Notes: generated by a model from the sequence alone, not told the origin. Positions 4,188 to 58,438 are shown, counted from the first letter of the whole stretch. The stretch is 62,615 nucleotides of DNA, filler included, from Globobulimina sp. (GCA_003354225.1; 15 parts of 15 records of this genome joined end to end with filler, not necessarily neighbours in it), one strand, 5' to 3'. Numbers and translations are program-made.

Positions 4188-4542
4188 CTTGTTATCGAGT
4201 TAAAAATAAGGAAAATACACAAATACAAATTAAAAGAAAGAGATTGAATGAAAAACCAACATTAAAGACATGGGATCATTACAAACCATTTGAAAATTTT
4301 TTGAAACAAAATCCAATGGATCATATTGCAATGAATGTTGTTGTTAAAAATAGTGCAAATACTGACAAGTCTGAACAAAGATGTGTGATTGGAAATTGTT
4401 TATTTGAATAAGATTCCAGACGAAATTCCTTGAACAAATCTTTGAGGCGGACTTATACGATTGTTATAAACAGTAATTTCACAGAAACGTTATAAACAGT
4501 AATCTCCGATCATAGGTGACACGTTTTAGAGTGGTATACAAT

Positions 4543-4854
4543 TCAATCAGAACCACATTTTTCTAATTGCAAAGCAATATCAGTTTTTTGTTTTTCTAAA
4601 ATCTCGATTTCATCCAATGTCGAGTCCATCATTCTTTTGATCCTTTCAGTAATGGATCGTTCCTTAGGTATGAAATGTAAGAAAGTGGTTACCACCACAC
4701 CGCCACCAACAATCAATGGTGCAATCATTCCCATTTGTGTTCTTGCAGTCCGATGCATTAATTGACGCGCTTTTGGATGTAAGTCCAATCGTTCATTATT
4801 TATGCCAAACTCCTCTGTTCTTGGCATTGTTCGTTTATTCCATCGCGACGACAT
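4543..4854 (-). CDS. Small single-TM hypothetical protein (103 aa)
   Basis: ATG-initiated ORF with one hydrophobic segment and a coiled-coil-like C-terminus; divergent from the transporter gene. Confidence 0.5.
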   Translation of the reverse strand: MSSRWNKRTMPRTEEFGINNERLDLHPKARQLMHRTARTQMGMIAPLIVGGGVVVTTFLHFIPKERSITERIKRMMDSTLDEIEILEKQKTDIALQLEKCGSD

Positions 4855-4915
4855 TAGTTAAATTAATACAATTATTAGAAAATGCTAACAAATTCAGATT
4901 GAAAGTTTTTTACAC

Positions 4916-6454
4916 ATGGCTGAAGACACAAGTGGTGATATCGCGCTGAAACATTTACTAAAAGACCCAGGAACCAACTATTACACTCAATTAAATGACT
5001 CCACAACCGTTGTAACTGACGATGAATTCGAAGACCTAAGCAAATCCGTGCTAGAAACAACTGCGGGAAGTCAACTAACAAAATCTAGCAGGAAAAAGTC
5101 ATCAATTGCATCAGATTTTTTTTCTCAATCCAAAGCAACAATGTTTAGGTGGGTTAATTCTTTTTTTTTCTCAATAAATTAATACCAAAGCCCAACGTTA
5201 TTAAACTGTTTAATTAGTTCAGGAGTCAATCTTTGTAATGCAAACATTGGTGCCGGTATGTTAGGACTACCATTCGCAGTGCGCGATTCTGGCTGGTTAA
5301 TGGGTATAATGTTATTTATCATTTTTTCCTGTCTGACCATATTCTCATTTAATTTATTAACGGCTGTGGGCCATTGTTATTATCGAGAAGGCAGGACATC
5401 ATCCTACGCCATTGTATGCAATGATATTGCACCACGATTGCAAGTAGTTATTGATGTATGTATTGTATTTGGCTCTATATTAACAAATGCTGCATATTTA
5501 ATTGTCATTGGTGATTATATGCCATTAGTAACCATGGAATTGGCCGGTATGTCCCCCTCCACACACAGTGATTCTATGTTTATAACGCGAGAATTTTGGA
5601 TTATTATATTTTTAATTGTTTTAATATTACCGACCACTGCATTGAAAAAGTTGGATGAATTACGATTCAGTTCAATGATTGCAATCGGATGTTTTATTTA
5701 TGTGACGATAATTGTTATAATATTCTTCCTGGTCGACAGTGACAGTTTGCATATTGGTGATGATGATAAAGGAGAAATCGCAGCAGAGCCATCCTCTGTT
5801 TTCGATTTCTTTAAAGCAGCACCAATATTTATCACAGCCTATGGAGGACATCCGTTAGCCTTTATTGTGACGAATGAGTTATACAATCCGACATTGAGAC
5901 GTATTAATATTACACTGGTAAATACGTTTGTTTTTGTGACTGCAGTATATGTCACAGTTGGTTTATTTGGGTATTTGACGTTTGGTAATAAAACACAATC
6001 AAACATATTATTAAATTATCCAGATAATAATGTTTTGATTATTATTGTGAGGATTGGACTATCAGTGGCCGTAGCTTTTTCATATTCGGTTATCGCCAGT
6101 TTTTGGAAAGAATCAATGGCCGCATTGTTGTTTGGAGTGGATAAACAAGGCAAAGATGCAAAAGGTTTGGTGTGGTATAAATATTATACTTTGGTTGCAA
6201 TATTAATATTTTCTACTTTAACAATTTCAATGTTAACTGATGATTTAGGAGTTGTACTTAAAATAAAAGGTGCCACCGGGAGTGCGTTCCTTCAAATTAT
6301 TGCTCCAGGATTAATATATTATTATTATGATAAATTACATGTACAGACAATGGTAGCTAATCCATGGCACAACTTAAAATTGAAGGGATCAATATGTTTG
6401 ATTGTATTTGGATGTATTATGATACCGTTTGGAACAACACTTGTTTTCGTATAA
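4916..6454 (+). CDS. Amino acid transporter (AAAP/SLC38 family), two exons, intron 5149..5217
   Basis: Splicing GT(5149)..AG(5217) gives MFSSGVNLCNANIGAGMLGLPFA, the family TM1 motif. About 11 TM segments and GYLTFG...NILLNYP. Confidence 0.92.
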
Positions 6455-6602
6455 ATAGCATTTATACTTTTTTTTTTGTACATTTAAATATTATTATCAT
6501 GACATCCTTCAAGGGGATGACACCATAATTGCATGCGCATATGCACAAAAACGATCTGCGGTGATAGCTAAAGAAAAAACTTTATACGATTGCAAATTTG
6601 CA

Positions 6603-8273
6603 ATGGCTCGCACAAAACAAACAGCTCGAAAATCAACAGGTGGCAAGGCGCCACGCAAACAGTTAGCAACTTACGCAGCACGTAAATCAGCACCAACAGC
6701 TGGCCAAATAACAGCTGATTCATCACGGGAGTCAATGGAACATTTCTTGTATGCCCAAAAACGAGAAAATTGGTTAGATACATTAATTGTAGACAGTGAA
6801 GAATCTTTATATTATAATATGTTACAAATTGATAATGAAATCGAAGAATGCATTCAAAATAATAATGGCAATGACATATTACAAGATTTAATTCAACAAA
6901 TGACTGAATGCATTGACATTGTACAAATTATCAAAGACGAGGAAGACTCAAATATCATAACACCACGAATTGAAAAAATTATATTTAGATTTACAATGAG
7001 AATGATTGGCAATGATAAAAGTAACAAATATTGGAACAAATTAATTGATAAATTAAAATTTCATAGCAAATCAATCCAATTTAATGATAAAAAGCCAATA
7101 AAAAAACGATTAGCACAAAGCAGTGATGATATTCAATATCCATCCATTATTAAACCATTTTCTATGTTCGTAAAATCGGAAATTATCAATTGTTTAAATA
7201 ATAAAAAACAAAGTAAACAGTATTTATTCAAGAATAAGTTGAGCCAAAACTGTATTTTTGACATAGTAAATGACGAGAAAATATTTAAGAATTTAGCCAA
7301 TTGGCAAATTGCTGAAATATTAAACTTCGAATCAATTATTTATATTTCAAATGATAAATTATTATATTTATTAAAGAAGGATTTCAAAAAAAATAAAACA
7401 TTATTTGGAGATCGTGATATTCATAAAAAACTATCGATTGATGTTTTAGATAAATTACATTGTTATTTTCCAGCATTAATTCAAAATAGAATATTTTTAA
7501 CATTTTATATTAACAAATTACGACCAAAATGTCTGTTAAAATACGAGGATGATAACTGGGATAAAACCGGAGATATTCAAAGCAAAATAGTATATTATCA
7601 AATAATATCCAATTTTATTGATAAATATTTAATTTTGCCATCACATAATCAGTTTAAATGTGCCTTATTGTTATTTTTAATGAAGAAACAGTATCATTTC
7701 AATGGCGAAATTGATATAAATTTATTTTTTAAATATTTAATGATTCCAAAAAGAAAGAGTTATAATCAAACAATATGGACATATTATGATTATTATACGG
7801 ATAAAATGAAAAAACAAAAAGAAAGATTACTTATTAAACAACAAAGAAATAACACGAATAACAACAATACAAATAATAATATTAATGATTCAGAGGATGA
7901 TGAGGAGGATGAAAATGACAAAAATATATTACAAGAAATGAGTTTTATTGGTTTTGGAGAAGAGGTAAACGTTTGGAGAGCCTTTAATTTTTGTGATGAT
8001 TTTTTAACCAATGTAGGCTCTGACGATGATGACAGTGCTTCGACAGCGGGAATGACGATGTTTAAATTCATAGTGATTCGACACGATAATGACGATGATA
8101 AATTTGTACATGATGCAATTTTATATTTTTTAAGAAATAACAATAAAATATCACACATTACCTCTGCTTTAAAGGCAATGATTGAAAAAGATATAAATAA
8201 GTTAAATATAATTAATATGATTTATAATAAAGGAACGCAACAAATTGATGAAGATGACAAAAATGATCAAGAC
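6603..8273 (+). CDS. Large protein (3'-truncated) with an N-terminal histone H3 tail fused to a non-histone helical domain
   Basis: [34 protein letters not shown] followed by more than 520 aa in the same frame with no histone fold. Confidence 0.85.
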
Positions 8274-9023: not shown

Positions 9024-11969
9024 CTAATTCTCTGTTGGTTTGCACAGTTTTTTTGGCACAGAAACAGCGCCTTGTTCACCAGACGGACCAAATGCTGCTA
9101 ACAATGCAATAAAAAATGTAACTGCAAATACTAAACTAAGTGCAATAATTGACATTATTAAAATGCCCATCTTTTTGAAAAAAATCATGTCAGGAAAAAT
9201 TAAAAACAATCCAGAACCAAATGTGGTAATACTGCCAGATATAATTGATATGCCCATTGTGTATAAAGCATATTTAATTCTTTCATACCTCTTTTTACTG
9301 TGTTCGCATTCAACATAAGCTGCAGCCAAATGGACCACGTAATCAATTGAAAAACCAATCATCATAACAATAGCAATACATTCAACAACACCCATTTCCC
9401 AACCCTGCAATTGCACAATCATCGTTGCACCGCACATGATGCAAATCACAGTAAGTGTTGCAAACATTGAAACAATCCAGTTCCTGGTAAATATTATTAA
9501 AACTACAAATGCTGCGGGCAATGCTACCGCAAGCCCCTGTATTGCACTTGGAATATATGCAGCTGCTGATTCTACCCAACCAAACTGCCCTGCTGATGTA
9601 AAAGCACCAGAAATATTTAAATTTGGTGCTAAAGCATTCCATTCTCTCGCTTTAGAATCAAAATAATCCATTGCTTCTTCTATCTTTAAGATAGGATCAT
9701 CCGTTGACACTGTTAACGCAAACTTGATTGCAACAAATTTTAATTGATTTTCGTCCGCATTATATCCAACCATACCATCAATCAAATGCTGAGGTTCTTC
9801 TTTTGTCCAATTTGATATTAATTGATTAAATGTTCTTCTTTGAATATCTGCATCAGCACTAAAATTAAATGGAAATGACATATTCAATGCACTTGATTTG
9901 GAAACATAACTTCTTAAATCATATATAAAACAGTTAAGTTCTTCCGATGGATTAAATAATTTATGCGAATGTGAATGTTCCAATTCTTGACAAATATCAT
10001 AAATATATTGTTGCGCTTCAACTGACGATATAGCAAAATTTTCATCGTAACGAACGGTTCCACGGTCCAAAGGATCCCAACGGTTCGCATCTGATCTGTC
10101 TATGTAAAGTGTTGTGTGTAAATATTTTTGTTTTTGTTAAATTTTATAAATGTAGTACATACCAACATATTGCTCTAACCCCCAAACAACGTTAACTCTT
10201 ATATACTGATTAATATCTCCACCGTCAAATTCGAATTGCCACCAAATCATTTTCTCTAAATAATGATTTTTTGAAAAGAACGTTTCTGGTTCAGTTAGCC
10301 GCCGTAATTTAGTGGTTTGCCATATGCTGACAGCTACGAAAATTGCAAAAAATGCCAAAATTGCTTTGTTGAATTTAATTATCCATTTGGACCATGTGTC
10401 CCTTAAGAACGTCTCTGTAGAGCGACCTTCATTGGCACGAATGAGAACATCTTCAAGTATTATTAAAGATGAACGCAATGATTCTCTTCTTGATGCTTTA
10501 CTTTCTGTTGAAACAGGCGAAACACTCGGCATTTCTTTCGGTTTTGCACGTTTACATGGAAATCGTTCATATTTTCTGACGTATATTTCATAGCAAGCGA
10601 CAACTGCTGGAAAGAACGCGAGCATTAACATATAATTAATAGCGATAACTAATCCTGCCCAAATACCAAATGTTGAAAAGACTAATAACGGCGATAAACC
10701 TGTTGCTAAACATGCAATTACCGTCGTCGCAGTGGTAACCAGCATAGCACGAGACGCTCGATTATAAGTATATGACATTCGTGCGATTATATCTGTTGGA
10801 TCTTGAACTATTTGCAAAGATTGTGACCAGGCATCTAAAAATACGAAACAATCATCCGCTCCGATTCCCAAAATTAAAAAGGCAACCATCAGTAACAAGG
10901 AACCAAAATAATTAATTCCAAACACAATTCGATATAAAAAATAACTGAAAGTGAATCCAATGATAATTTGAATTATTGCCATAGTTGGCAAAAATAAACT
11001 TTTCGTGTGAACTGACATAATCACAAATACTGCAAAAACACTTGCCGCAATCCAGATCATGCCAGCATTCGTTGCCTTATCTAAGTCTAAGAAAAAAAAT
11101 CTTGCCGCACTCATTACAATTTCAATTCCATTGTGGTCACTATTTAACTTAATATCTTCATATATGGGATACATGTAATCATCGAAATAAGCAGCTTGTT
11201 TGTCGAATCTGTCAAGTTTATTCTTGAAAGATGAGTTTGTGTCTGATATATCTGGAAACGGTAAACCGAATGTAAAAAATGCTCGGTAATATTGACTTTT
11301 TCGCGTGCTTTTAAATGAACGATCAAAATGATTGTAAAATAGAGCTCCATAATTTGAAATCGACGCATTAATCACAGTATCGAGTTGTTGTTGAGTGAGT
11401 GTCGTCGGATCAAAACCATGTGCACGGATACCTTTGGCAATTGGATCAACCGTTGCAAAATCTGAACAATTAGGGAATGAATATGAATCTGCATAACATA
11501 ATTTGGAATATTCATCGTAGTTTGTATCTGTTACTTTAGAATTTGTTTGTGCGATATAAGATAAATAATCTTTTTCGATTCCAGGTTGTAAAATATTGCT
11601 ACCATCCCTTGTATGGAACATTATCGCCACAGAAAACGTCATTTCTTGTTGTGTTTTTGGTTCTGCACTGTATTTGATTGTGTGGCTGATATCTTTTGTT
11701 GCCAGAGTTAATGCATCAAAATGATGGGTAGCTTTTGCTGAACTGTCATAATATTCCATTCCAACTCCACCATCACTCATTGAAAATACATTCACATCAG
11801 CAACACAAGCCAATACAGACAAACTTATAATTGACCATATGATTTTGCATGGATGTCTTGTTATAATCTCAGCGACTTTTAAATGTTTCTTAACTGGAAC
11901 AATGTTATCTGTGTCTTTATTATCTTCAGTGTTGTGCGTGTATGTCAATCCTTTATTTTCTTCTGTCAT
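9024..11969 (-). CDS. Patched/Dispatched-family RND protein with a sterol-sensing domain; intron 10100..10162
   Basis: GIGADDCFVF and GFSIDYVVH TM motifs. Splicing joins VVWGLEQYV|DRSDANRWDPLDRG in frame. Confidence 0.9.
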
Positions 11970-22133: not shown

Positions 22134-23508
22134 TTATTGTTGTATTAATAAAGTAGTAAATTCTCCAGCAATGGCTCTAACAATGATGTCTTCAAATTTT
22201 GTACCAATTTCCATACTATTAAAGGTATGTGGATCTTTAACAATTTTATTTTGATTTAATGGATTTGTTTGATGGTACTCATTGCCACCAAAGCCAATAA
22301 CACTGTGATCAAATGCTAGTAATAAGGTGTGGTTATAGCCGCAGGAACCACTTTGGATCCGACACTTTCGAAATTCCCTATATTCTTTTTGAAATATGAC
22401 AATCTCTCGAATATATCCATGCGATGTCTTTGAGATTTGATGGCTTCTATTTGCTCCAAACAAGTAACACATCCCATCCCTATCAACAACCATACAATGC
22501 TCATGTTTGGTGGATGTAAACCTTATTAATGACTTATTAATAAAATATGGATGAATGGTTGGTGTTTTGTAATGATTTTGCTTTGCTGCGCCATAAATAC
22601 CCAATTCATTTCCTTTATTCTTACCAAATATATATAATTTATCATCAACACTGATACATAAATTATGATATCCACCGACTGTGATGTTTTTAAATAATAC
22701 GCCACATTCAATCTCTCTCATTACAGTTAATATTTTTTTATCTGTCTCAATACCACATTGCCAATCGTCATTGCGTCCGCACCCATATATTTTACCATTT
22801 TTATTTAAAAATATTGTATGATTATAACCGCACTCAATGGATATTATTCGATTATATTCCGTATTAAATGTGCTATTGATAGGGTATGGGATATATATTA
22901 TATCTGTTGTGTTGTCGCCACATTGGCCATATCCATTTTGTCCCGTTGCATATATGATATTATTTAATACAAATAACATGTGATTGGTGCCTGATGATAC
23001 ACATTGCACAAAATTATTTGTACGATGACGCACAACATTTGTCATATCAATTTCTGAGAACATTTGAATTTGTGTTTCTTCCTTACCGCAGCCACAGTCA
23101 CCATTATAATTATTACCGATGGAATATATGCGATCTTCATGCGTTTTAACTGTAAAACGGGAATATCCATAAAATATGTCTTGTGGTTGAATAGATAAGG
23201 AACCAAATTCTGACAATTCATGGAATGATGTCAATTTACCAGTCATTCCCAATTCATTGTAGTTGTTAGCACCAATTGCATATACGGTACCTGTGTGTGT
23301 GTTAAATGAAATCACTGTTAATATTACATACATCGTTAATCATTGAAGGAGCGAGAAACAACATACATTTTTTGGGATAAAACAAATAAATCATATTTTT
23401 CACCTCATCTGGAAAAGCCATAGTTAACGCAGTTAGTTTCTTTTGTTCGCGAATGTAACCATGAACTAGAATTTCCATTGGTTCTGGAGGTGGATCTAAC
23501 CATGACAT
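22134..23508 (-). CDS. RCC1-repeat protein with an N-terminal GYIR module; intron 23291..23366
   Basis: Multiple G.N..GQ.G and (C/G)G..H RCC1 motifs. Splicing joins FYPKK|CTVYAIG. Confidence 0.88.
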
Positions 23509-25444: not shown

Positions 25445-25577
25445 GGACTATTGCAAGGACTTGTGTATGTGGCTAGAACATTTTTGTGTACGGCAACAAA
25501 ATCGTTTGAAAAGGAATTTCAAGAATTTATTTCAAAGTTTGTGTGCTGCTGTTCAAATTGTTTAGTCAAAGAAAGAC

Positions 25578-26576
25578 ATGACTGATCGTATGCCAAATTT
25601 CGAGAAATTGAGAGGAGAGGACAATTGGCCGAAGTGGAGGTCTATGATGGTCACATATTTCAAAGCATTGAAATTGTACAAAATCCTTGATGGTACCAGA
25701 ATGCGACCTGTAGTAGGACAGCCCCCTGAACATCCTGCTACTGCTGATGATGTCGAAAATTTCGAAACAGACTGTGCACGAATTGGGAACATTTTCAATA
25801 ATATGATTGAAGCAACATTGTTCAATGTCTACACTGGACCCGGTTTTGAAACTGTACGTCAGCAGTGGGATGCACTGACAACTTATTTTGATCGACCAAC
25901 TGTCTCGAATAAAATGGATTTGTTGTCCCAATTGATTAACTGTCATCAAAGAGAGGAACAGTCCATTGATGAGTATTTCCGTGAAATTACTGAATTGGTT
26001 AGTAAACTTGCTGATTTACAGTACGTTGTTGATGACCAGCTGAGATTGACTTTGTGTATGAATGGACTCTTGTCACAGTATTCTACAGTTGCACAAGTGT
26101 ACAGAGCGAAAGGTGATCAATTGACATGGGCTGATCTTCATGAAGCTCTCCGAAGCGAAGAGAAGCGGTCAGGAACATTATCTATGTCTGCAAGTGCAAT
26201 GTATGTTGGTACTGTTGGTACAAGAAGTAGCCCAAAGTTCAGCAGCAAACCGCGAACTTGTTTCAATTGCGGTTCTGAAGGACATTTCTTTGATTCCTGT
26301 CCAAAGCCAAAAGATATGAAGAAGGCGCCCAAGCATTCCAAGTGGAAAAAGAAAAGTAAAACTGTTGGCACAATGCCCAGACTTAAGACTGTTGCGGATG
26401 AATCAGAAAATGAAGAAGACACAACATTGCATGTGAGGGAGATGGTGAAAACAATGAAAACGAAAGACATGTCAAGTATCAATTTTGTTATTGATTCAGG
26501 TGCTACAAAACATGTAGTTGTTAATCGTGATTCATTTGTTAGCTATGTAAAGTTTGTGAAACCTCTAGTGTTGTAA
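25578..26576 (+). CDS. gag: Copia Gag with zinc knuckle and the first half of the protease
   Basis: KLRGEDNWPKW, CFNCGSEGHFFDSC and FVIDSGATKH. Confidence 0.9.
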   Translation: MTDRMPNFEKLRGEDNWPKWRSMMVTYFKALKLYKILDGTRMRPVVGQPPEHPATADDVENFETDCARIGNIFNNMIEATLFNVYTGPGFETVRQQWDALTTYFDRPTVSNKMDLLSQLINCHQREEQSIDEYFREITELVSKLADLQYVVDDQLRLTLCMNGLLSQYSTVAQVYRAKGDQLTWADLHEALRSEEKRSGTLSMSASAMYVGTVGTRSSPKFSSKPRTCFNCGSEGHFFDSCPKPKDMKKAPKHSKWKKKSKTVGTMPRLKTVADESENEEDTTLHVREMVKTMKTKDMSSINFVIDSGATKHVVVNRDSFVSYVKFVKPLVL

Positions 26577-29185
26577 TGGTTGATGGTAGTCGTGCTGAGT
26601 CATTAGGCATAGGACGTGTTCGTGTTGCTATGTATGTTAATGATGTATGCAGACATGTCACATTGCACGACACATTACATGTACCACAGTCACAAACAAA
26701 TCTCCTCAGTGTTCGTCGTGCTCAGAACCATGGATGCAGTTTCTGGTTTCCACAGTACTCTGATATGTGCCATATTTACGATTCCAAGGGAAAGGAGCTT
26801 GGACAAGCACAGGACATGGGAAACAAGGAATACATACTGATTGGTGAAGTATTGAAACCTAAAGAAACATCAGAACTGGACTTGGTGGATCATGTGAAGG
26901 CTTTAGTTGCACCAGAAAACCCATTCACTCTTTGGCATCGACGCCTTGGACATGTAGGAGAAGATCGACTCAAAGATGCCATAAGAAAGGAGTTAGTCAC
27001 TGGGATCGACTGCAAAGTGACGCCTAGTGCTCATCTACCTACATGTGAAGGATGCATTGAAGCAAAGTCAACACGGTTACCACATAAGAAGCTGTCAGCA
27101 GTGTCAACGTCAAATGTGCTTGAACTTGTGCACAGCGATGTGTGTGGACCTATTTCGAAGCCCAGCTTTGGAGGGTCGAAATACTTTGTAACATTTACAG
27201 ATGACTTCAGCAGAATGGTGTGGGTGTATCCAATGCAAGCCAAGTCAGAGGTGTTTAAGTGTTTCAAAGTTTGGCACCAACTTGTCACCACACAGATGGA
27301 AAAGAAACTCAAGCGTTTCAGAACAGACAATGGTGGTGAATTTGTGAATAGACAATTCAAAGAATTCTGTCAAATCAATGGAATCAAGCATGAAGTAACG
27401 ACACCATATACTCCACAGCAAAATGGAATCGCGGAAAGAATGAACCGGACTCTACAAGTCATGAGCATTGCCATGCTACGTCATGCTGTGAAAGGAAAAC
27501 AGTATTGGGCTGAGGTTGTTACTACAGCTGCTTATATCCGAAATCGACTTCCTGCAAAGATTGTGGATCAGTATCAATCTCCTTATGAAAGATGGTTTGG
27601 ACGTGTTCCATCAGTGAAACATCTACGTGTTTGGGGATGTGATGCATATGCAGTAAAATCTAATGTTCAGAAGTTTGATGCAAAAACTGAAAAGCTGATC
27701 TTTGTCGGATATGCGCAGAATTCAAAGGGATATCGTCTAATGAATCCAGTGACAAAACAGATTACCAGAGCATGTGATGTCACTTTTGCTGAAGATCACT
27801 TCTCATTGGATACGGTACAGAATGAGGATGAGATGGATGTCGGGATCGGAGGGAGACAGGTGTTGCCACAAGTGGTCCAGGAACAACCTGTTATTGTGCC
27901 TCAACTTCCTGAACCTGAACCTGCTCTGGAATTGCCAGACCCTGTTGAAATTGAAGAGCAAGTTGTTGAACCAGCCCTTCAACCAGAGAATCGGTACCCA
28001 TACCGAAATCGACAGCAACCGAATCGTTATGGTGATTGGGCATCAGACCAAGAGATGTCAGAAATTGATAGAAATGCCTCAGTGCACCAAGAACTCATTC
28101 GTCTACTGTCAACGGAAGATGAACGGATTGACTATTTGTTTCAAGTTGCCTATGAACCAGATCCGGTCACAATTGATGAAGCAATGAATGGACCAGATGG
28201 TTATGAATGGAAAAAGGCAACTGACAATGAATACAACTCTCTGTTGGAAATGAACACATGGGAACTAGTCAACCCACCTCAAAGTCGGAAGATTATTGGA
28301 AGCAAGTGGGTGTTTCGGAAGAAGTATAATGCAGATGGTAGTCTGGACAAATTCAAAGCTCGACTGGTTGCCAAGGGATTTAGTCAGGTGCCTGGTTTCG
28401 ACTTCTTTGAAACATACAGCCCTACTCTTCGACTTAGTACCCTGAGAACTGTAATCGCATATGCTGTTTCAAAGAATTTGTTGATTCATCAAATGGATGT
28501 AACGACAGCATTTCTGAATGGAACAGTGGAAGAAGATATCTATGTCCAACAACCACCTGGATATGAGAAACCTGGAGAAGAACACAAAGTGTGTCATTTA
28601 CTCCGATCATTGTATGGAATCAAACAAGCACCACGGTGCTGGAACAAACTATTCGTTCAGTACCTGAAATCGATTGGATTTCATCAATGTGTGTCTGATA
28701 ACTGTGTCTTCGTTCGTTTCAACCCGTTAGCCATTGTCATGGTCTATGTGGATGATCTTACTGTGATTGCTGAAACAAGCGAAGAAATGACGAAAATCAA
28801 AGCCGAATTGTCAAGCCGTTTCAAGATGACTGACATGGGTGACATTCATTACATCTTGGGCATTGCAATGACAAAGAACCATGATAAATCGGTGACCCTC
28901 AATCAAGAGAAATACATCGAAGAACTGGTCAAGAAGTTTCAAATCACTGGAGAACGAAAAGTAACTACTCCAGCTGACCCAAATGTCATTCTTCAGAAAA
29001 TAGATGGAAGTGAACCATGTGATCAGAAACGATACATGTCTGGAGTCGGAAGTCTCCTCTATGTAGCTCTTGGATCAAGACCTGATATTCAATGTGCCGT
29101 AAACACATGTGCTAAATTCAGTTCAGCTCCTACAAAGACTCACTGGACAGCACTGTTACGTATCATTCGGTATCTGGTATGGTAC
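26576..29185 (+). CDS. pol: Copia Pol (protease C-terminal half, integrase, RT; truncated before RNase H)
   Basis: WHRRLGH...CEGC; DDE motifs VHSDVCGP, TDNGGEF and NGIAERMNR; RT motifs KARLVAKG, MDVTTAFLNG and YVDD. Confidence 0.95.
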
Positions 29186-38792: not shown

Positions 38793-40229
38793 TTACACAA
38801 CGTTAAGATTAAAATTCGCACGAATCCAAGAATTAATTTCCTTTTTCAGTTCAACATTGGGCGTCAAATCAGTTAACTCAGCCGGCTTTTGTGTAATTGG
38901 GTCTTTATTATACATCTTTATGTAGCCTTCGAGCACCTTCCTTTCGTGCGTATTACCCGACACATTCAATATCACTGCATCACGCATTATCTCATACGTT
39001 ATAGGATCAAAATAATTATACGGAATGTCGTCTGTAAGTATCGCATTTGCCACAATATTCTCATAATCATCCTTCGCCACCAAATCTGATATCACTTTCA
39101 AAATAGCCGCATGATCCTCCACATCCTCCAAACCCGCCATTTTAAATATAACTTCATTCAGTTTGCACAATTCATGACCTCTCACGCGACCAATATAAAT
39201 ATGCTTCCTTAAATTCGCATATTTGATCCCACAAAAAGCGCCATTATTGACGCGATTGAACCAATATATGACACCATAATAATTCCACACATTCACTCCT
39301 TTTCTACGCATGCCGCCCGGACCCGGCACATAATTTAAATTTCGCCTCAGAGCTGCAAGGTTCTCCTCCACCGAAAAGCCCGCAACCACCACATCATACA
39401 CATACGAACAGCGCCCAACAGCATCACCGCCACCATTAACATGTCTGCTATGCCCATTGTGTCCATTGCGTCCATGCCGTGATCCAGAACGAGATTTCGA
39501 ACGACAACGAGAACGAGAACGCGAACGAGAGCGTCTGTGATATTTTTGAGAGAATTGCCGAGTGCGAGAACCCTCAAAATGACCATTTCTAAGTTTGCTT
39601 GGAACCTTTGCTAACGGTAAAGGTGAAACACCAGCTCGATCCCAACCACGTCTCCGCCTTCGCACAAAGGCTATGGGCCCAATGTACTCCAAATTAGTAC
39701 ACAATTTGTCCACGAATTCAATGCCAGCACCAATCCTACAATACGCGGGAGAGTTTTTCTTTTGACCATAGGGACGAGTCACTCTTTCGGCATAGAAAAA
39801 TTCTTTGCGATTTTTGTCGCCTCGCGACGGTAATTTAATTTCATTGGTAACGCAGCGATAACCGCCATGGCGCGTACTCGTTAACTCAAACTGTACGCCG
39901 CTCCAATCGAAGTCGTATAGATAGGTTAGCACTTTTTGGATCACCCGAAATGTTGCTAATCGCATTGATGCATGTTTTTGCATCGTAATACCACCCGTTC
40001 CAACAAATATGACATCATTAGTACCTGGCATTAGCAGCGTACATTTTGATTTACGCCGGCCATCTAAGTTTAGGGTGGAATATTTTGCATCCAACAGCCT
40101 GAATTCTTGGAATCCTGGTTCAAAAAAAATATTATGTCTACCTAATAACCGCTTGGATTGGTCAATTACAAGATGACTATTAGGAATGTCCCAAAATATG
40201 AGTTCTTCCAATCGATAGAAAGTTGGCAT
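38793..40229 (-). CDS. U-box E3 ligase-like protein with an internal RS-rich segment
   Basis: C-terminal IPYNYFDPITYEIMRDAV...SGNTHER...DPITQ...LTPNVELKKEINSW; internal RSRSRSRSR. Confidence 0.8.
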   Translation of the reverse strand: MPTFYRLEELIFWDIPNSHLVIDQSKRLLGRHNIFFEPGFQEFRLLDAKYSTLNLDGRRKSKCTLLMPGTNDVIFVGTGGITMQKHASMRLATFRVIQKVLTYLYDFDWSGVQFELTSTRHGGYRCVTNEIKLPSRGDKNRKEFFYAERVTRPYGQKKNSPAYCRIGAGIEFVDKLCTNLEYIGPIAFVRRRRRGWDRAGVSPLPLAKVPSKLRNGHFEGSRTRQFSQKYHRRSRSRSRSRCRSKSRSGSRHGRNGHNGHSRHVNGGGDAVGRCSYVYDVVVAGFSVEENLAALRRNLNYVPGPGGMRRKGVNVWNYYGVIYWFNRVNNGAFCGIKYANLRKHIYIGRVRGHELCKLNEVIFKMAGLEDVEDHAAILKVISDLVAKDDYENIVANAILTDDIPYNYFDPITYEIMRDAVILNVSGNTHERKVLEGYIKMYNKDPITQKPAELTDLTPNVELKKEINSWIRANFNLNVV

Positions 40230-41033
40230 GCTCTTGGACTAACAAAAAAAAAGTTGAGGAAAATTTTATACAAAAGCCATGTTTTTCATCATGTTTACGG
40301 AGTTGTTCTTCAAATAATGAGAAATCAATAATGATAAACAAATTGTGATTTTTTGTTGTATACCGAGTATGAAGAAGGAGCTGCAAAATATGGATCTCTA
40401 CAGAAGTAAACAACATAGCTGCAAAGAATGTTATTTATATATATTATTATGACATCATCTTACATATTATTATGACTCATTCAATCATATCTAAACTTTG
40501 CATATGTTGCAAAATATATATTAAAAAATATAAAGTTTTATCACGTAAATCAAGAACAAAAATTTGATCTCAGCACTCATTCAATCACTCCAACAGCAAC
40601 AATAAAACTCATATTTATTATACATTTTATATTTTGAACAATATGAGAACAATATGTTTGACATGAAATATATCCATTTTGGTTATACTGTATTCTCATA
40701 TCATGACACTTATATCCGCAACGGCAACATATTCACGTAAATTGTTTGTATATTCCTTATGTGGTTTGCTTGCTAATGCAATATCTAATCTCTAATGTGC
40801 TATCGATCACTCATCACTTGTGCAAAGTTGTGCTGGTGTTTGTCATCATTTTAGCAATAAATTTATTTATGCTGCCATTGTTTTCTTGGTGCGAAAGGCC
40901 GTACGCGTCTGTTTAGTGCGTGCATTTTTCGTCTTCAAGTTGTTCAATGAATACAAGAAGAAATACTGTTACACAGAATTCAAGAATTAAACTATTTTGA
41001 AAGGAAAGGAAGTATTGACAGTTGACTGTGTGA

Positions 41034-50749: not shown

Positions 50750-50812
50750 AATGTTGGGATTTGAACCCAAATCACCAGTGAACTGGGTGCTCTTTTTGAG
50801 CTACATTATTAA
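50750..50812 (-). ncRNA. tRNA-like element (degenerate tRNA or tRNA-derived SINE head)
   Basis: A-box-like TAGCTCAAAAAGAGCA, a perfect T-arm TTGGG-TTCAAAT-CCCAA, a short CCAG-TTCA-CTGG hairpin, and flanking TATTTTGT direct repeats. Confidence 0.5.
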
Positions 50813-53800
50813 ACAAAATATTAATTGCGACAAATAATCGATAGCATCTTCGTGATCTGACGCATATTTTAGTGACAAAAAACATTTCGTAGCAGTTTCG
50901 CCGTTAAAGGTATCGTTCCATACATCACCATTTGAATCGGTATACGATGACAACGGCACATTGAAAAACAAAGATTTAGCTACATTTATCAGCGTAATAT
51001 GTATCAAATTGTCACTTTGCATATATTCGATATCTGCCAATGATTGAATATTAACACTCTTCTTTTCTATGCTTAATATTTTGGTGCCGTCCGACAATGC
51101 GGAGATGCCACATTCTTTTGCTTCAATTTGCGAGTTTTCCGCCGAACTAAAATTATTGAATAATAGCTGCTGTTGCTGATCAAATTTGTTTTGTTCGAGT
51201 TGGTCAATTTGCTGCAACAACACGTCCTGTTTATTGATCTCTTCCTGCGAAGCGGCGAAAAACATATCAAAAAACACAGCGAGCAAATAATTGACCACCA
51301 ATATGGGCCCAGCTATGAAAAACAGCAAAAAGTAAATCGACACAAAATAGCTGTCCGTGATCTCAATCGCTTGATACATGATAATATGCCAATTGTTGGT
51401 GGTTAGTATTTGGAACAAAGTGATCATCGTCGCATTGGCATCACAAAATAGTGCATACGTATTTTGTTCCAGCTGTTTCAATCCATTGCACCTTATCTGT
51501 CCCCATTGGCTCTCATCGTGCCAATCATAAAATAATTCCATGCCAACCACAGTGAATATGTACAATAATCCGACGAATAAATAGAAGCAAATGCGCAGAA
51601 ACACGGGTATCATATAAATGACTGTCTGCGTCAATGTGTTGGTGACTGACGATTTTAAAAAAGTGAACCGTTGCCGCAAAAAGGAAGCCATCACCAATAT
51701 GCGCGAAATGCCAATGAACCGCAAGCCGGATAAATAGTTATCGTCCTTTGGCAAAGACGCAATGCCAACAATGGTGCCGAGGGACTGTATCATTGTGATG
51801 ACAAAGTAGATTTTATTTGTGCTAGTTTCGAAATAGCGGTCAAATTTAAATATGATAATATCGATAAAGGTGCTGATTAGGATAAGAATGATGCATATCC
51901 CATCCGTATAAGTGCACAATGTCGGCACATAATGATAGGTCAATAACGAACAGACATCGATGGAGATGATGAATAGTATGAAATTTCTGTAATAGGCAGA
52001 GGTGAATACGGACAATATGTCATAGCCATATTTCGAACCTAATTTCTGGCCTAAACTTTGCAAATATAATTTCAATTCGTCTTCGCGCGAATTTGTCCGT
52101 TTGGAAATGCTAAAATACAGACAATTTATCATCATATCGTTAAACTCGTCCTTTTCAATCTTGCCGTTTTGGTTCGGATCCATTAATTGAAACAACACAT
52201 TGATTTCAAACGTGTTGTACTTTGGTTTCAATTTCCTGATTAGCCGCGAAAACCGATCGAATTCAAAATAGCCCTTTTCGTCATAATCCAGACAATTCCA
52301 TGCCACATTAAGTGCGATCAACTCGCGATGCTCATCGTACACATCGATTTTGCCGATATTCATCAAATACGCGTTGTAGACGCTGGCGGAAAAGAGATTC
52401 ATTAAAAAAAAAGTCGATATCAAGATATAGACTAAAAAATATGAGTAATACACGTGGTTGCTTAGCCACGCCGGCCACAGCAATTCGGGGAAATTCTCGG
52501 CCGTCAACAATACGAATAGACTCATCGAGGAGAGGTAGAAAGTGTGGAACGAGTACCATATATATTCGCCTTCGAGGGCGGTTTCGGGCACAACCTGGTT
52601 TTCCAAGTATTTCTCGTACGTTCCGGCGCCGACAAAAAAGTCTTCCTTGCTGTACACATCCGAGGTATACTGAAATATGTGATATCCAATGCGCGCAAAG
52701 ATGCCCGTTAAGGCCAGGTATAACATAATGATCTCGATGATGGACGGCAGCGTATTGAATAAAATGAAATATTTAATGCGCAAATCGCGTATAAATAACA
52801 TTAGAAAAAAGGGTCTGAGGATACGCCGCATTGAGAAGGAATGGCCTTTTCTGATGCTGGCAATTAACAAATCTGTGAACAAAATGAATAATAATACCAC
52901 GCGCACTTTGTGCAATAAATGGTCCTTAAAAAACCATTTGCGACCAAATGAGTAGAAACGGAGCGAACATTCAATGAATAAGATAATAAATATAAACCAC
53001 TCGCAGATGATCAGAGTGCGGATGTATTCATATTGCGTCGTTTTTGGATCTGTGTCGAAAATGGTGGAGGAGGGCTCAAATTGGATGAAAAATAGCCATA
53101 ATAAACAGGTACAGATTAAAAAATAGCGCACCCATTTTGTATTTAGAAACTTATGCACTTTCTTGGGCAATTTGCCGTTTCTATGCATTTTGAAATCTCT
53201 GCCATGGATGGCGTCGTCCAAAAACATGGACGCTTTCTCAATTAAGTCATTTTCGGTCAATAAATTGCCATATTTATCATGCAATAATTGCTGCTCTGAC
53301 GCAATATTTGTGTTTAGCTCTCGGACGGGTCGAATGTAGGAATCATACGCATCAATATCCCAATACGCCAAATGAACGCCGGATATGTGCCCACACACAG
53401 AATTATTTATGCTTTTATCCAAATTATACATCTCATTCTCGCCAAATGCCTGATTTTTAGCATGTTCTCCAATGCAGCCAAATAGCACGAAATAGAAACA
53501 CAAACTGTCATTGTTTGCATCGCCGATGTTTTCGTTGTTTCTTACATACAAATACTTTGTTTTTTGGATCAATGCTCGAAATGTATGATGCCCCGAATAG
53601 ATGACATCGTCGCTGATTATTTCAAACTGTTCGAAATAAGCGATTAAAATATCAATTTCGTGTTTTACTCTGTCATTAATATCTTTTTTCAAGATTTCAA
53701 TAATTTCATTCACGGCGTCATCCGCAATGTCATCCGAATCAACGGCACCTTCGTTGGTTGCATTGGTTGTGCTGTCTTCATCGATAAGTTCCGGGATTTT

Positions 53801-54124
53801 TAATGTTATTACGGCGCTTCCCATTATATTCTGTGAGCCCATCATTGAGCCTTTACCGGGTCGGCTATGTCGATTCTGTCGGAGTCGTTTGTTAGGAATA
53901 GTGACTTCGATGTGTGTTTTTATTGTTGCGTTGTTGTTATTATTTTTGGGCTCAATCACGCCTTGCAATATTTGCCCCATTTCAATAGAATCATTCTCTT
54001 TGCGGTCATTCTTATCCGCTTCTGTTTCTTGTTTTGTTTCTGCTGCAGACTCGGAATGTCTGCTGTTTGATGATACTGTCATACGTAAATTTGATGCTGG
54101 CGGACAGGTTTTAGCTGCCATCAT
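50801..54124 (-). CDS. TPC: Two-pore channel (TPC) with EF-hands, an N-terminal cNMP-binding-like region and a C-terminal DEP-like region
   Basis: Two 6-TM repeats, S4 RRILRP, pores LTAENFP and LTTNNWH, and EF-hands DYDEKGYFEFDRF and DPNQNGKIEKDEF. Confidence 0.88.
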   Translation of the reverse strand: MMAAKTCPPASNLRMTVSSNSRHSESAAETKQETEADKNDRKENDSIEMGQILQGVIEPKNNNNNATIKTHIEVTIPNKRLRQNRHSRPGKGSMMGSQNIMGSAVITLKIPELIDEDSTTNATNEGAVDSDDIADDAVNEIIEILKKDINDRVKHEIDILIAYFEQFEIISDDVIYSGHHTFRALIQKTKYLYVRNNENIGDANNDSLCFYFVLFGCIGEHAKNQAFGENEMYNLDKSINNSVCGHISGVHLAYWDIDAYDSYIRPVRELNTNIASEQQLLHDKYGNLLTENDLIEKASMFLDDAIHGRDFKMHRNGKLPKKVHKFLNTKWVRYFLICTCLLWLFFIQFEPSSTIFDTDPKTTQYEYIRTLIICEWFIFIILFIECSLRFYSFGRKWFFKDHLLHKVRVVLLFILFTDLLIASIRKGHSFSMRRILRPFFLMLFIRDLRIKYFILFNTLPSIIEIIMLYLALTGIFARIGYHIFQYTSDVYSKEDFFVGAGTYEKYLENQVVPETALEGEYIWYSFHTFYLSSMSLFVLLTAENFPELLWPAWLSNHVYYSYFLVYILISTFFLMNLFSASVYNAYLMNIGKIDVYDEHRELIALNVAWNCLDYDEKGYFEFDRFSRLIRKLKPKYNTFEINVLFQLMDPNQNGKIEKDEFNDMMINCLYFSISKRTNSREDELKLYLQSLGQKLGSKYGYDILSVFTSAYYRNFILFIISIDVCSLLTYHYVPTLCTYTDGICIILILISTFIDIIIFKFDRYFETSTNKIYFVITMIQSLGTIVGIASLPKDDNYLSGLRFIGISRILVMASFLRQRFTFLKSSVTNTLTQTVIYMIPVFLRICFYLFVGLLYIFTVVGMELFYDWHDESQWGQIRCNGLKQLEQNTYALFCDANATMITLFQILTTNNWHIIMYQAIEITDSYFVSIYFLLFFIAGPILVVNYLLAVFFDMFFAASQEEINKQDVLLQQIDQLEQNKFDQQQQLLFNNFSSAENSQIEAKECGISALSDGTKILSIEKKSVNIQSLADIEYMQSDNLIHITLINVAKSLFFNVPLSSYTDSNGDVWNDTFNGETATKCFLSLKYASDHEDAIDYLSQLIFCLIM

Positions 54125-56730: not shown

Positions 56731-58438
56731 TTATTTTTTATATTTAAATTGAATAATATGCGTAGTGATAGCGTGATAATCCCGATTTATCACAAAAATC
56801 GTCGGAGAATGGACATTATTCACACAACTTTCATATTGTGTTTTTTTATCTGGCTTATAAGGAATGGAGCTCCCATCCATGTCACGCGAACCAACTGTAT
56901 ATTCTCCAATAATCACCTTACAAACTAACATTACGTATTTCTCATTATCGTCCTCATCATCAGCCTCGCAATATTTTGCCGATTCCGATGCCAAATTACT
57001 AAAATAAGTTCCCTTTCCATACAAATGATGTCTATTAAAATCACGATTAAATCCATTGTTCACTATCTTTGCTATATTGCTAAAAGATGTGCCATGGAAC
57101 AAAACGCGTTCAATCTTATCAATATCCACACCAATCTTAGCCGACAGCTCCTCTTTTTTTGCCGTTAACAATGCGTCGTAAACTACACTTTTTGAGGCAT
57201 TCGCTTTGATTTTTTGTATGGATAATATCAACACTGAATCCTTGGTCAAGGTCTTACTAAACTCATTATAAATATTTCTATCATCGTCACTCATCAATAC
57301 TCGCTCCGATTTATTCACATTTGCTTCTTTTTTTTCATCCTCATTATCCCCATTGTCCTCCACTTTATTTTTGTTTTTGTTTTTATTTTTTGAAAAAAGG
57401 CCACGTAATCGACTCGTCTTTTTTTTGTGTTTAGTATTTGTATTCGCATCATTTGCATTTACATTTGCATCCATATCATTATTTGGGTTATTTTGCTTGA
57501 TTTGATGCGTCTCATCGCCCATAATAATATCCTGTATGTCATTTGGATCCAATTTTATAATTTCTTTTGGTTTATCCTCCTCATTGTCACTATTATTTGC
57601 GGCTAAACTCGCAAACAAACCGCCATAACGATTCGAAAATTGATAATTCTGATGACTGCTCGACGTATTCTTAAATCCTGCGCGATAATTTTGATTATTT
57701 GTTTGTGCTAAATATCAAAATAACTTTTTCAAACTACATTCAACCAAACAACAAAACAAAATAAAAAGCACATCCTTGCACAAAGCACACTTTTTTTTTT
57801 CAGATTCAACTAATTTTCCGATCGACAAATATACAAAAAACATACCATGCGAAGTCCACCCAACATCCATATCATCCTTATTTTTCAGTATCATTTGATA
57901 CTTTCGCACCGTATTCGTGTTGGTATTGGTTTGCGTGGCATTCACAGCATCAATTTTAGTGATATCATACGTCCATTGTCCCCGTTGATGCTGTACCGTT
58001 TGCCCCGTGCCTAATTTTAATAATTTCACCATTAACTCATTACTATCAATACAGCTCCACCCACCTTTACCGTCATTGAAATGCCATACTACCCTTTGCT
58101 GCGTCGTATGGTCATATACGATGCGTCTTAAATCTCTTTGATTGTTGGTGTTGTCATTGGTTTGCGTACATTCATCCATCGAGATCTTACTCACTGTGTA
58201 CGACCATTTACCAAACGTATATTTCATACTTGCATTCAACTGCAAACTATCTAATTTCACAGCAATATTAAAGCCTAAATCTTTCCATTTATTATCATTC
58301 TCCAGAAACTGCCATAAGAATGCATAACGCCCAAAAATGCCCAACCAATTCTGGCTGCCGTGTTGAGTGTAGGTGACTGCCGCAGGTGCAGTGGATGGGG
58401 CTGTGGCTATATATGGTGGTAGCGGTACGAGCAATGCT
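56731..58438 (-). CDS. Tandem WWE-like domains + PARP catalytic domain (mono-ADP-ribosyltransferase type; 5'-truncated); intron 57678..57845
   Basis: WQFLENDNKW and WHFNDGKGGW WWE-like motifs; LFHGT, YGKGTYFS and PTIFVI give an H-Y-I triad. Splicing joins WTSH|GFKNT in frame. Confidence 0.85.

Follow-up and report, generated by a model that had tools for sequence, protein, structure and literature searches.

In a 62,615-base window of DNA from the foraminiferan Globobulimina sp. (GCA_003354225.1), an open reading frame (ORF) on the plus strand at 6603-8273 begins with histone H3's N-terminal tail and continues in frame into a giant non-histone protein. What is new is a complete H3 tail in its own register, letter-perfect over the first 17 residues, on such a protein in two distant protist groups, the foraminifera and the oomycetes, one of which includes culturable plant pathogens. 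As judged from sequence conservation, the reading we favour, with moderate confidence, is that the tail is a conserved, long mimic of the H3 N-terminus, carried by a giant scaffold and engaged by the machinery that acts on K4, K9, S10 and K14 of H3.

The reading frame and its relatives

The window consists of 15 contigs of ~4.08 kb in order of descending length, joined by N44-TTAATTAATTAA-N44 linkers. A feature that runs into a linker has therefore been truncated by the end of its contig, and what lies on the other side of a linker is unrelated to it. The H3-tail ORF lies on a 4086-bp contig (4188-8273) with a GC content of ~28-33%. Its frame opens at 6459, the ATG at 6603 is the first in frame, and the 557 residues that it begins run stop-free to the contig end. 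An initial sequence-only reading of the window had let the ORF end at 8273; that position is the end of the contig, after which the artificial linker begins, and from the length of an orthologue the full-length protein probably has ~2500 amino acids.

The ORF encodes, in order, Met and 33 residues of the H3 tail, a linker of 10 residues, and a body that begins with MEHFLY. Residues 2-34 correspond to H3 residues 1-33, and within H3 1-30 the sole change is a Tyr for Lys at position 23 (K23Y). The canonical sequence and exact N-terminal register described in the sequence-only reading are borne out by the translation and by structural databases. A search of the PDB with the ORF protein returned 135 distinct sequences at E ≤ 0.01; the best 60 of these were all H3/CENP-A-type chains, aligned with query residues 1-36 only (one extended to 54) at E values of 9.7e-12 to 1e-9. 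Lys is present at position 23 in the aligned PDB H3 chain, and also in an H3 contig of the same data that has a loose end at 6670. A degenerate DNA pattern for ARTKQTARK occurred once in the window and in 0/100 shuffles. The whole protein, when used in a homology search, gave 1300 matches at E ≤ 0.01 among 8000 candidates; these were dominated by H3, and the 120 listed covered 6% of the query and nothing on the body.

The sequence-only reading saw no histone fold after the tail, and this is upheld: a Pfam scan of the ORF protein at E ≤ 0.1 found no family, histone fold included, the PDB matches stop at residues 36-54, and the body belongs to another family. In an AlphaFold model built from 30 aligned sequences (mean pLDDT 78.3), residues 1-37 fall below 50 and are followed by helices only.

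Relatives of the body were found by phmmer with residues 33-557 against 1.84 billion representatives. This returned 27 proteins at E ≤ 0.001, of which 8 reached ≤ 1e-10 and 3 ≤ 1e-30; the best were foraminiferal, including P0123 (E 3.3e-59) and P0124 (E 1.6e-51). Several relatives carry the tail. A 204-aa fragment from Bolivina argentea (P0122), 76% identical, has the same tail including Tyr23. A search among long proteins found a Nonionella stella protein of 2574 aa (P0153; isoform P0184, 2603 aa) that starts with the tail and has the full body, 62% identical to residues 1-400 at 100% coverage (E 8.4e-145). As far as can be told from the source, the EukProt entries for these orthologues go back to transcriptomes assembled with Trinity (PMC8153729), in which case orthologue mRNA contains the junction. 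The H3 tail also begins two oomycete proteins, P0176/P0185 of Aphanomyces euteiches and the partial, 1601-aa P0182 of Thraustotheca clavata. The Aphanomyces cluster has 10 members from many contigs, eight of 2379 aa, one of 2378 aa and one a C-terminal isoform of 1004 aa. Homology of the oomycete proteins with P0153 extends well past the tail (BLASTP E 4e-53 for the C-terminal 800 aa, 4e-37 and 4e-22).

Other family members lack the tail. These are the Nonionella proteins P0123 (2450 aa; 38% identical to P0153 over 2055 columns) and P0200 (2270 aa), P0124 of Bolivina, two fragments from Reticulomyxa filosa, and P0150 of Balamuthia (2313 aa, E 2e-82). In the alignment the tail-less proteins begin where the linker of the window protein ends. 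The family thus far spans 2270-2603 aa in foraminifera, oomycetes and Balamuthia, with body identities of 36-76% within each lineage and 24-25% between lineages. The sequence-only reading had likened the body to the N-terminus of an uncharacterised giant-protein family of Planctomycetes, myxobacteria and some protists; the protist membership is established, and relatives in Planctomycetota are apparent. That reading knew of no such tail in the family, but three foraminifera and two oomycetes carry one.

Searches elsewhere were less productive. Among short proteins, residues 36-300 recovered only P0122 and P0127. The latter, a 76-aa NCBI protein on an 800-bp genomic contig, matches the Bolivina orthologue exactly over 43 residues of the body's first motif and has unrelated flanks; it either comes from a tail-less copy or is an exon with introns on both sides, one of which would lie at the tail/body boundary. 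Metagenome scans with the body alone and with an alignment of three orthologues gave 333 and 308 pattern matches with 0 relatives, a scan of IMG/VR viral contigs gave 136 pattern matches with 0 relatives, and a search of the ESM Atlas with the window body gave no usable match. No other contig of the window encodes a member of the giant family.

With respect to its fold, the body is macroglobulin-like at most, and it is not a demonstrated member of that family. Pfam scans at E ≤ 0.01 found 0 families on P0123, P0125, P0132 and P0141, P0153 and P0182 had unrelated sub-threshold matches only, and P0176 and P0150 had none. For the N-terminal domain, Foldseek found no PDB match at E ≤ 0.001, and VIA-align returned generic helical bundles only, with a best Z of 8.1 that is within noise for helical models. 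When the last 1004 aa of the Aphanomyces homologue were modelled (pLDDT 55.3, from 7 sequences only), Foldseek found 66 matches to the model at E ≤ 0.001 (lowest 2.4e-7), with probabilities of 0.99-1.00 but TM scores of 0.09-0.10; among the matches listed, all were C3, C3b, C3c, C4b, C5 or A2M chains. The Balamuthia member is named ‘MG2 domain-containing’ by its source, and leads from the Atlas comprise unnamed clusters, largely of Planctomycetota, at 0.98 and MG2/A2M clusters at 0.77-0.80. This weak resemblance of the C-terminal third is the likeness to alpha-2-macroglobulin and complement C3-C5, and it concerns the body only. The giant proteins differ from them in having no Pfam MG2/A2M domain (8 scanned), no CxEQ thioester motif (0/7 long members) and, by eye, no obvious signal peptide at the N-termini of the eukaryotic members. 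In outline, members of the family have an N-domain that is all alpha, a long middle rich in beta structure, an acidic linker that is disordered and a C-terminal third that weakly resembles A2M/C3, without the thioester.

Conservation and history of the tail

Residues A1-R17, which contain R2, T3, K4, R8, K9, S10, T11, K14 and R17, are identical in all five tail-bearing proteins of two distant lineages. The rest of each protein drifts. The window and Bolivina proteins agree at 17/17 positions of A1-R17, at 13/17 of residues 18-34 and at 117/154 of the body; for the window and Nonionella the corresponding values are 17/17, 8/17 and 267/466, for Bolivina and Nonionella 17/17, 7/17 and 101/151, and for Aphanomyces and Thraustotheca 17/17, 4/17 and 521/1447. 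In the linker, 6-7 of the 10 residues are in common with the orthologues. Position 23 is Tyr in the window and Bolivina, Gln in both oomycetes and Lys only in Nonionella (1/5). Since the distal tail decays and Tyr23 is common to two species, the tail has not been refreshed from H3 genes. The strict conservation of A1-R17 in five proteins while the rest drifts indicates selection on the tail rather than accident.

A second H3-like stretch lies within the tail-bearing relatives. The window tail was aligned locally to the long members from which the first 60 residues had been removed, with 200 shuffles of the tail as a control. An internal match was found in 4/4 tail-bearing rows, and 0/200 shuffles reached their scores: 1696-1722 in P0153 and its isoform P0184 (z 9.4 and 9.8), 1424-1439 (APRMQLATKASRRSAP) in P0182 (z 8.9), and 1544-1571 in P0185 (z 3.9). 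There was no internal match in the five tail-less or N-truncated rows (P0123, P0125, P0150, P0141 and P0200), for which 64-200 of the 200 shuffles reached the score. The stretch is located in the disordered linker, ~50-60 residues ahead of the C-terminal block that is conserved, and of the 70 residues after it 20-29 are Asp/Glu, forming an acidic run. In P0153/P0184 three YSPTSP[TS] heptads precede it at 1639-1659, with the H3-like stretch 40 residues further on, and residues 1632-1661 of P0153 matched the C-terminal repeats of RPB1 in a PDB search (E 4.9e-13). Both the internal stretch and the heptads are features of relatives; the window gene is covered to residue 557.

A maximum-likelihood tree was made from eight long members with their tails removed (2157 columns), leaving aside isoform P0184, the partial Balamuthia duplicate P0132 and short fragments. 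The tail-bearing Nonionella protein nests inside a clade of tail-less Nonionella paralogues (100/100), the oomycetes are separate (100/100), and Balamuthia groups with a Logan protein (91/94). By step count, two gains of the tail are better than one gain and three losses. Against this, a disordered tail could easily be lost, and the position of the internal motif, which is the same in both lineages, would speak for common descent. The tail has either been kept since before the lineages split or been acquired twice on the same family, and either history would imply a specific functional bond between the scaffold and the biology of the H3 tail.

Possible functions of the tail

If the tail is a functional mimic of H3, its origin and action may be pictured as follows. 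Codons 1-34 would have been derived from the organism’s own H3 gene and fused in exact register to a giant intracellular protein. An initiator Met is removed before Ala, and its removal here would expose a free, disordered H3 N-terminus. Enzymes, readers and carriers that recognise R2, K4, R8, K9, S10 and K14 of H3 would then treat the exposed tail like H3, so that the scaffold would be tethered to the chromatin-modifying and transcription machinery, or would compete with nucleosomes for it. The Pol II CTD-like heptads beside the internal H3-like stretch of Nonionella suggest that the scaffold is a multivalent ‘landing pad’, not a simple decoy. A broader proposal, that giant intracellular macroglobulin-like scaffolds of foraminifera and oomycetes bear two copies of the H3 N-tail and, in a single species, heptads of the Pol II CTD, all written and read by the machinery of chromatin and transcription, is offered only tentatively; if it were true, a protein outside chromatin would be subject to the histone and CTD codes. 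Should the tail be modified and read, histone-tail signalling would extend beyond chromatin, and the protein would be a natural probe for readers and writers of the free H3 N-terminus. Mimicry would also provide the first functional handle on a large uncharacterised family of protists and, apparently, Planctomycetota, and antibodies to H3 marks may show a band of >250 kDa in these taxa. Both suggestions of the sequence-only reading, a decoy or substrate for histone writers and readers and a co-opted import signal, are sensible; binding, modification, decoy action and nuclear location stay conjectural.

Several observations weigh against mimicry. A single clade of tail-bearing proteins was rejected by the AU test (p 2.75e-6), in which the tested group was named only after the first tree, and because of this rejection a common functional origin of the tails is not established. 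The 17-residue identity between lineages is also expected from independent captures of an invariant histone, and the case for selection therefore rests on the comparisons within lineages. Only part of the histone ‘code’ is conserved, K23 being lost in the window and K27 and S28 not kept in the oomycetes. The oomycete gene models were compared at the protein level, and transcriptome assemblers can create chimeras with abundant H3 mRNA. Finally, over the first 88 nt of the ORF (6603-6690) the RNA contigs that aligned were all from genuine H3 transcripts and none was specific to the fusion, and parts without contig cover prove nothing. This last point bears on the concern, raised with the sequence-only reading, that transcripts might start downstream at MEHFLY: the orthologue proteins, apparently transcriptome-derived, hold tail and body together, which answers it for the relatives.

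The main rival is that the H3 tail was captured solely as a nuclear import signal for histone-specific importins, with no reader or writer involved, which we consider unlikely. H3 1-28 is a nuclear import signal bound by Kap123, and an H3-NLS-GFP reporter cited in the same source shows tail-dependent nuclear localisation that is reduced by K14Q (PMC5677370). K14 is kept in 5/5 tail-bearing proteins, and no obvious signal peptide is seen by eye in the eukaryotic members. Kap123 contacts residues 12-17 and 21-26 of H3 through K14 and K23, and K23A or K23Q lowers the affinity (PMC5677370). Position 23 is Tyr in the window, however, and Lys is kept there in one protein of five, while the oomycete tails do not conserve residues 21-26. 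The segment that lacks order in the Kap123 complex, residues 1-11, is invariant. Moreover, an import signal needs no exact N-terminal register, and the CTD-like heptads would be left unexplained. With 1-17 invariant, 21-26 free and K23 lost, readers and writers of K4, K9, S10 and K14 fit better than the Kap123 mode of import. Import may coexist with mimicry.

A second alternative, which is improbable, would have the H3-like stretches act as basic partners of the protein’s own acidic linker or of histone chaperones, in self-regulation or chaperoning. The acidic run directly after each internal stretch would suit such pairing, as would the unrelated fungal proteins in which an internal H3 tail is likewise followed by an acidic run. 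A generic basic segment, however, would not need to be letter-perfect H3 over 17 residues.

It is still less probable that the tail is a neutral by-product, a functionless and decaying remnant of chance exon capture or of partial duplication of the 5′ end of an H3 gene. Residues 18-34 and the junction do decay between species, K23Y indicates some relaxation, and the tail-less paralogues function without a tail. Yet A1-R17 is intact in bodies that are 57-76% identical among the foraminifera and 36% identical between the oomycetes; at a per-site identity of 36%, 17 successive matches are expected with a frequency of ~3e-8. The co-occurrence of the tail with a second, internal H3-like stretch also speaks against a by-product.

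To our knowledge, the known cellular histone mimics are motifs of a few residues. The closest parallels to the mimicry proposed here are the human H3TMs such as VRK1, the N-terminal peptides of which bind PHD and Tudor readers in vitro (Chen et al., 2021; PMC8166343). The window protein starts Met-Ala-Arg-Thr-Lys, with Arg2 and Lys4 present, and so follows the same three rules as given there: a removable Met, Arg2 and Lys4 (PMC8166343). It differs from the H3TMs in its 33 H3-derived residues, 17 of them invariant, its protist carrier of ~2500 aa, and the second, internal copy in its relatives. The H3TMs reportedly share just their first few residues with H3 and are not derived from an H3 gene. 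Their list covers the human proteome only (PMC8166343). G9a and SETDB1, likewise cellular non-histone proteins, have a lysine motif resembling H3 that, once written, is read by HP1-type proteins (PMC2175347; bioRxiv 10.1101/2025.01.21.634156; bioRxiv 10.1101/2025.10.22.683908). Their motifs are internal, a few residues long and placed on the writer itself, whereas the window protein has a whole tail at a true N-terminus and no Pfam domain was found in it. Unlike the histone-tail mimics of viruses, the fusion is a cellular gene beside an intron-containing, expressed host gene, and it is kept across genera. Histone H3 itself shares residues 1-33 and the start-codon register with the window protein, which is without the histone fold. 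In a literature search the papers on histone mimics were human, viral and bacterial, with no description of the giant family or of long H3 tails on protist proteins; the foraminiferal transcriptome paper does not use the word ‘histone’ in its main text (0 occurrences; PMC8153729).

Long H3-tail grafts on non-histone proteins are a wider, little-noticed theme. The search among long proteins gave 31 of 976-2785 aa at E ≤ 0.01, 17 of them without a precomputed histone-fold family. The H3 N-terminus begins seven of these 17, namely P0153, P0176 and P0182 of the giant family together with P0157, P0160, P0175 and P0172, the last with seven residues only. Outside the giant family, the N-terminal tail is found on a ResIII helicase-type protein (P0157), a HECT+SPRY ligase (P0160) and a protein with no family (P0175). 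The other ten carry the tail internally (P0169, P0159, P0164, P0168, P0173, P0174, P0177, P0178, P0179 and P0183). Among the internal carriers are an FHA+SET+2OG-oxygenase protein (tail at 1029), the 1078-aa P0164 without a Pfam domain (at 611) and a VIT/vWA protein. Seven internal carriers of ~1000 aa, four of them named as ascomycete, have the tail followed by an acidic or acid-rich run, and in three of them the tail stretch starts near the same short sequence.

The junction, its contigs and the other genes

The weakest alternative is that the fusion is an artefact, whether an assembly chimera of an H3 gene and an unrelated ORF or a result of gene-model joins; the contigs of this heavily fragmented assembly are 4 kb long, the data contain H3 sequence repeatedly, and independently assembled contigs break within the tail, but an artefact is made highly improbable by a contig of run X1 that joins 53 nt of tail to 1387 nt of linker and body with 0 mismatches, by the same fusion with the same K23Y in the transcriptome-derived protein of a different species (Bolivina), by the agreement of the full-length Nonionella orthologue and two oomycete annotations, and by a uniform composition at third codon positions. 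The fusion is not a chimera. The X1 contig, which spans 6646-8085 and was assembled separately, bridges the junction, as the sequence-only reading would have it; X1 may be the sample of origin, and it then stands for an independent assembler rather than independent data. The continuity of the ORF confirms that there is no intron at the junction in this genome. Splicing of the tail exon to a histone fold elsewhere, which had been raised earlier, was rejected, since no orthologue has such a fold.

On the junction side, the X1 contig starts at 6646 and a contig of run X6 begins at 6691. Such breaks are to be expected where the tail has words in common with genuine H3 genes. Sequences from genuine H3 align to the tail at ~87% identity (13 differences in 102 nt for a record of run X2). 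A contig of run X3 encoding H3 follows the window up to 6703 and then continues into sequence coding for GGVKKPHRYRP; another H3 contig departs from the window at 6670, with a Lys codon where the window has Tyr. Similarity to genuine H3 transcripts starts at 6602, with none upstream, and the tail hence brought no leader or promoter of H3 with it. At third codon positions the GC fraction is similar in the tail (0.265), the body (0.218) and the neighbouring gene (0.283); nothing therefore looks foreign, and foreign DNA was rejected as a source.

The neighbouring gene encodes an amino-acid transporter (Table 1) and has a GT..AG intron of 69 nt (5145-5213) that is skipped in contigs of runs X2 and X6. 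These two runs are thus RNA-derived sequence, and the contig 4188-8273, with a gene so spliced, is cellular eukaryotic DNA; a viral origin of the contig was rejected. The spliced X2 and X6 runs also have contigs over parts of the body and over 6691-6980. The X2 contig over the transporter stops 100 nt short of the H3-tail ORF. A second version of the contig is present in the same sample (4960-6481, runs X1 and X3), ~88-92% identical (86 differences in 691 nt in one case); a diverged haplotype, a sister strain or a paralogous copy could account for it.

Table 1. Positions of the H3-tail ORF, its parts and the other genes in the window.
Feature	Position	Strand	Basis
Intergenic stretch or putative 5′ leader, from transporter transcript end to start codon	6503..6602	+	X2 spliced contig ends at 6502
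Start codon, Met then Ala as in H3	6603..6605	+	First in-frame ATG after 6459
H3-derived tail, H3 residues 1-33, predicted disordered	6606..6704	+	PDB H3 matches; low pLDDT
TAC codon, Tyr in place of H3 Lys23	6672..6674	+	Translation; also in Bolivina P0122, not in Nonionella P0153
10-residue linker, tail to first conserved body motif	6705..6734	+	Tail-less paralogues start about here in alignment
N-terminal all-alpha domain of giant protein family, cut by contig end	6735..8273	+	phmmer, AF2, run X1 contig
Amino-acid transporter gene (Aa_trans, E 5.3e-50)	4916-6454	+	Pfam scan
Patched/sterol-sensing-domain protein, intron-split	9024-11969	-	Pfam, unrelated contig
Kelch + MYND-finger protein, >1260 aa	16742-20521	+	Pfam, unrelated contig
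RCC1-repeat protein	22137-23339	-	Pfam, unrelated contig
Copia-type LTR retrotransposon gag + pol (Retrotran_gag_2, rve, RVT_2 at E 6.3e-73)	25566-29185	+	Pfam
U-box protein	38796-40238	-	Pfam, unrelated contig
Two-repeat Ion_trans channel with EF-hands	50804-54124	-	Pfam, unrelated contig
PARP catalytic-domain protein	56734-57714	-	Pfam, unrelated contig

Among the remaining features of the window, the Copia element has a GC content of ~42%, compared with ~30% elsewhere.

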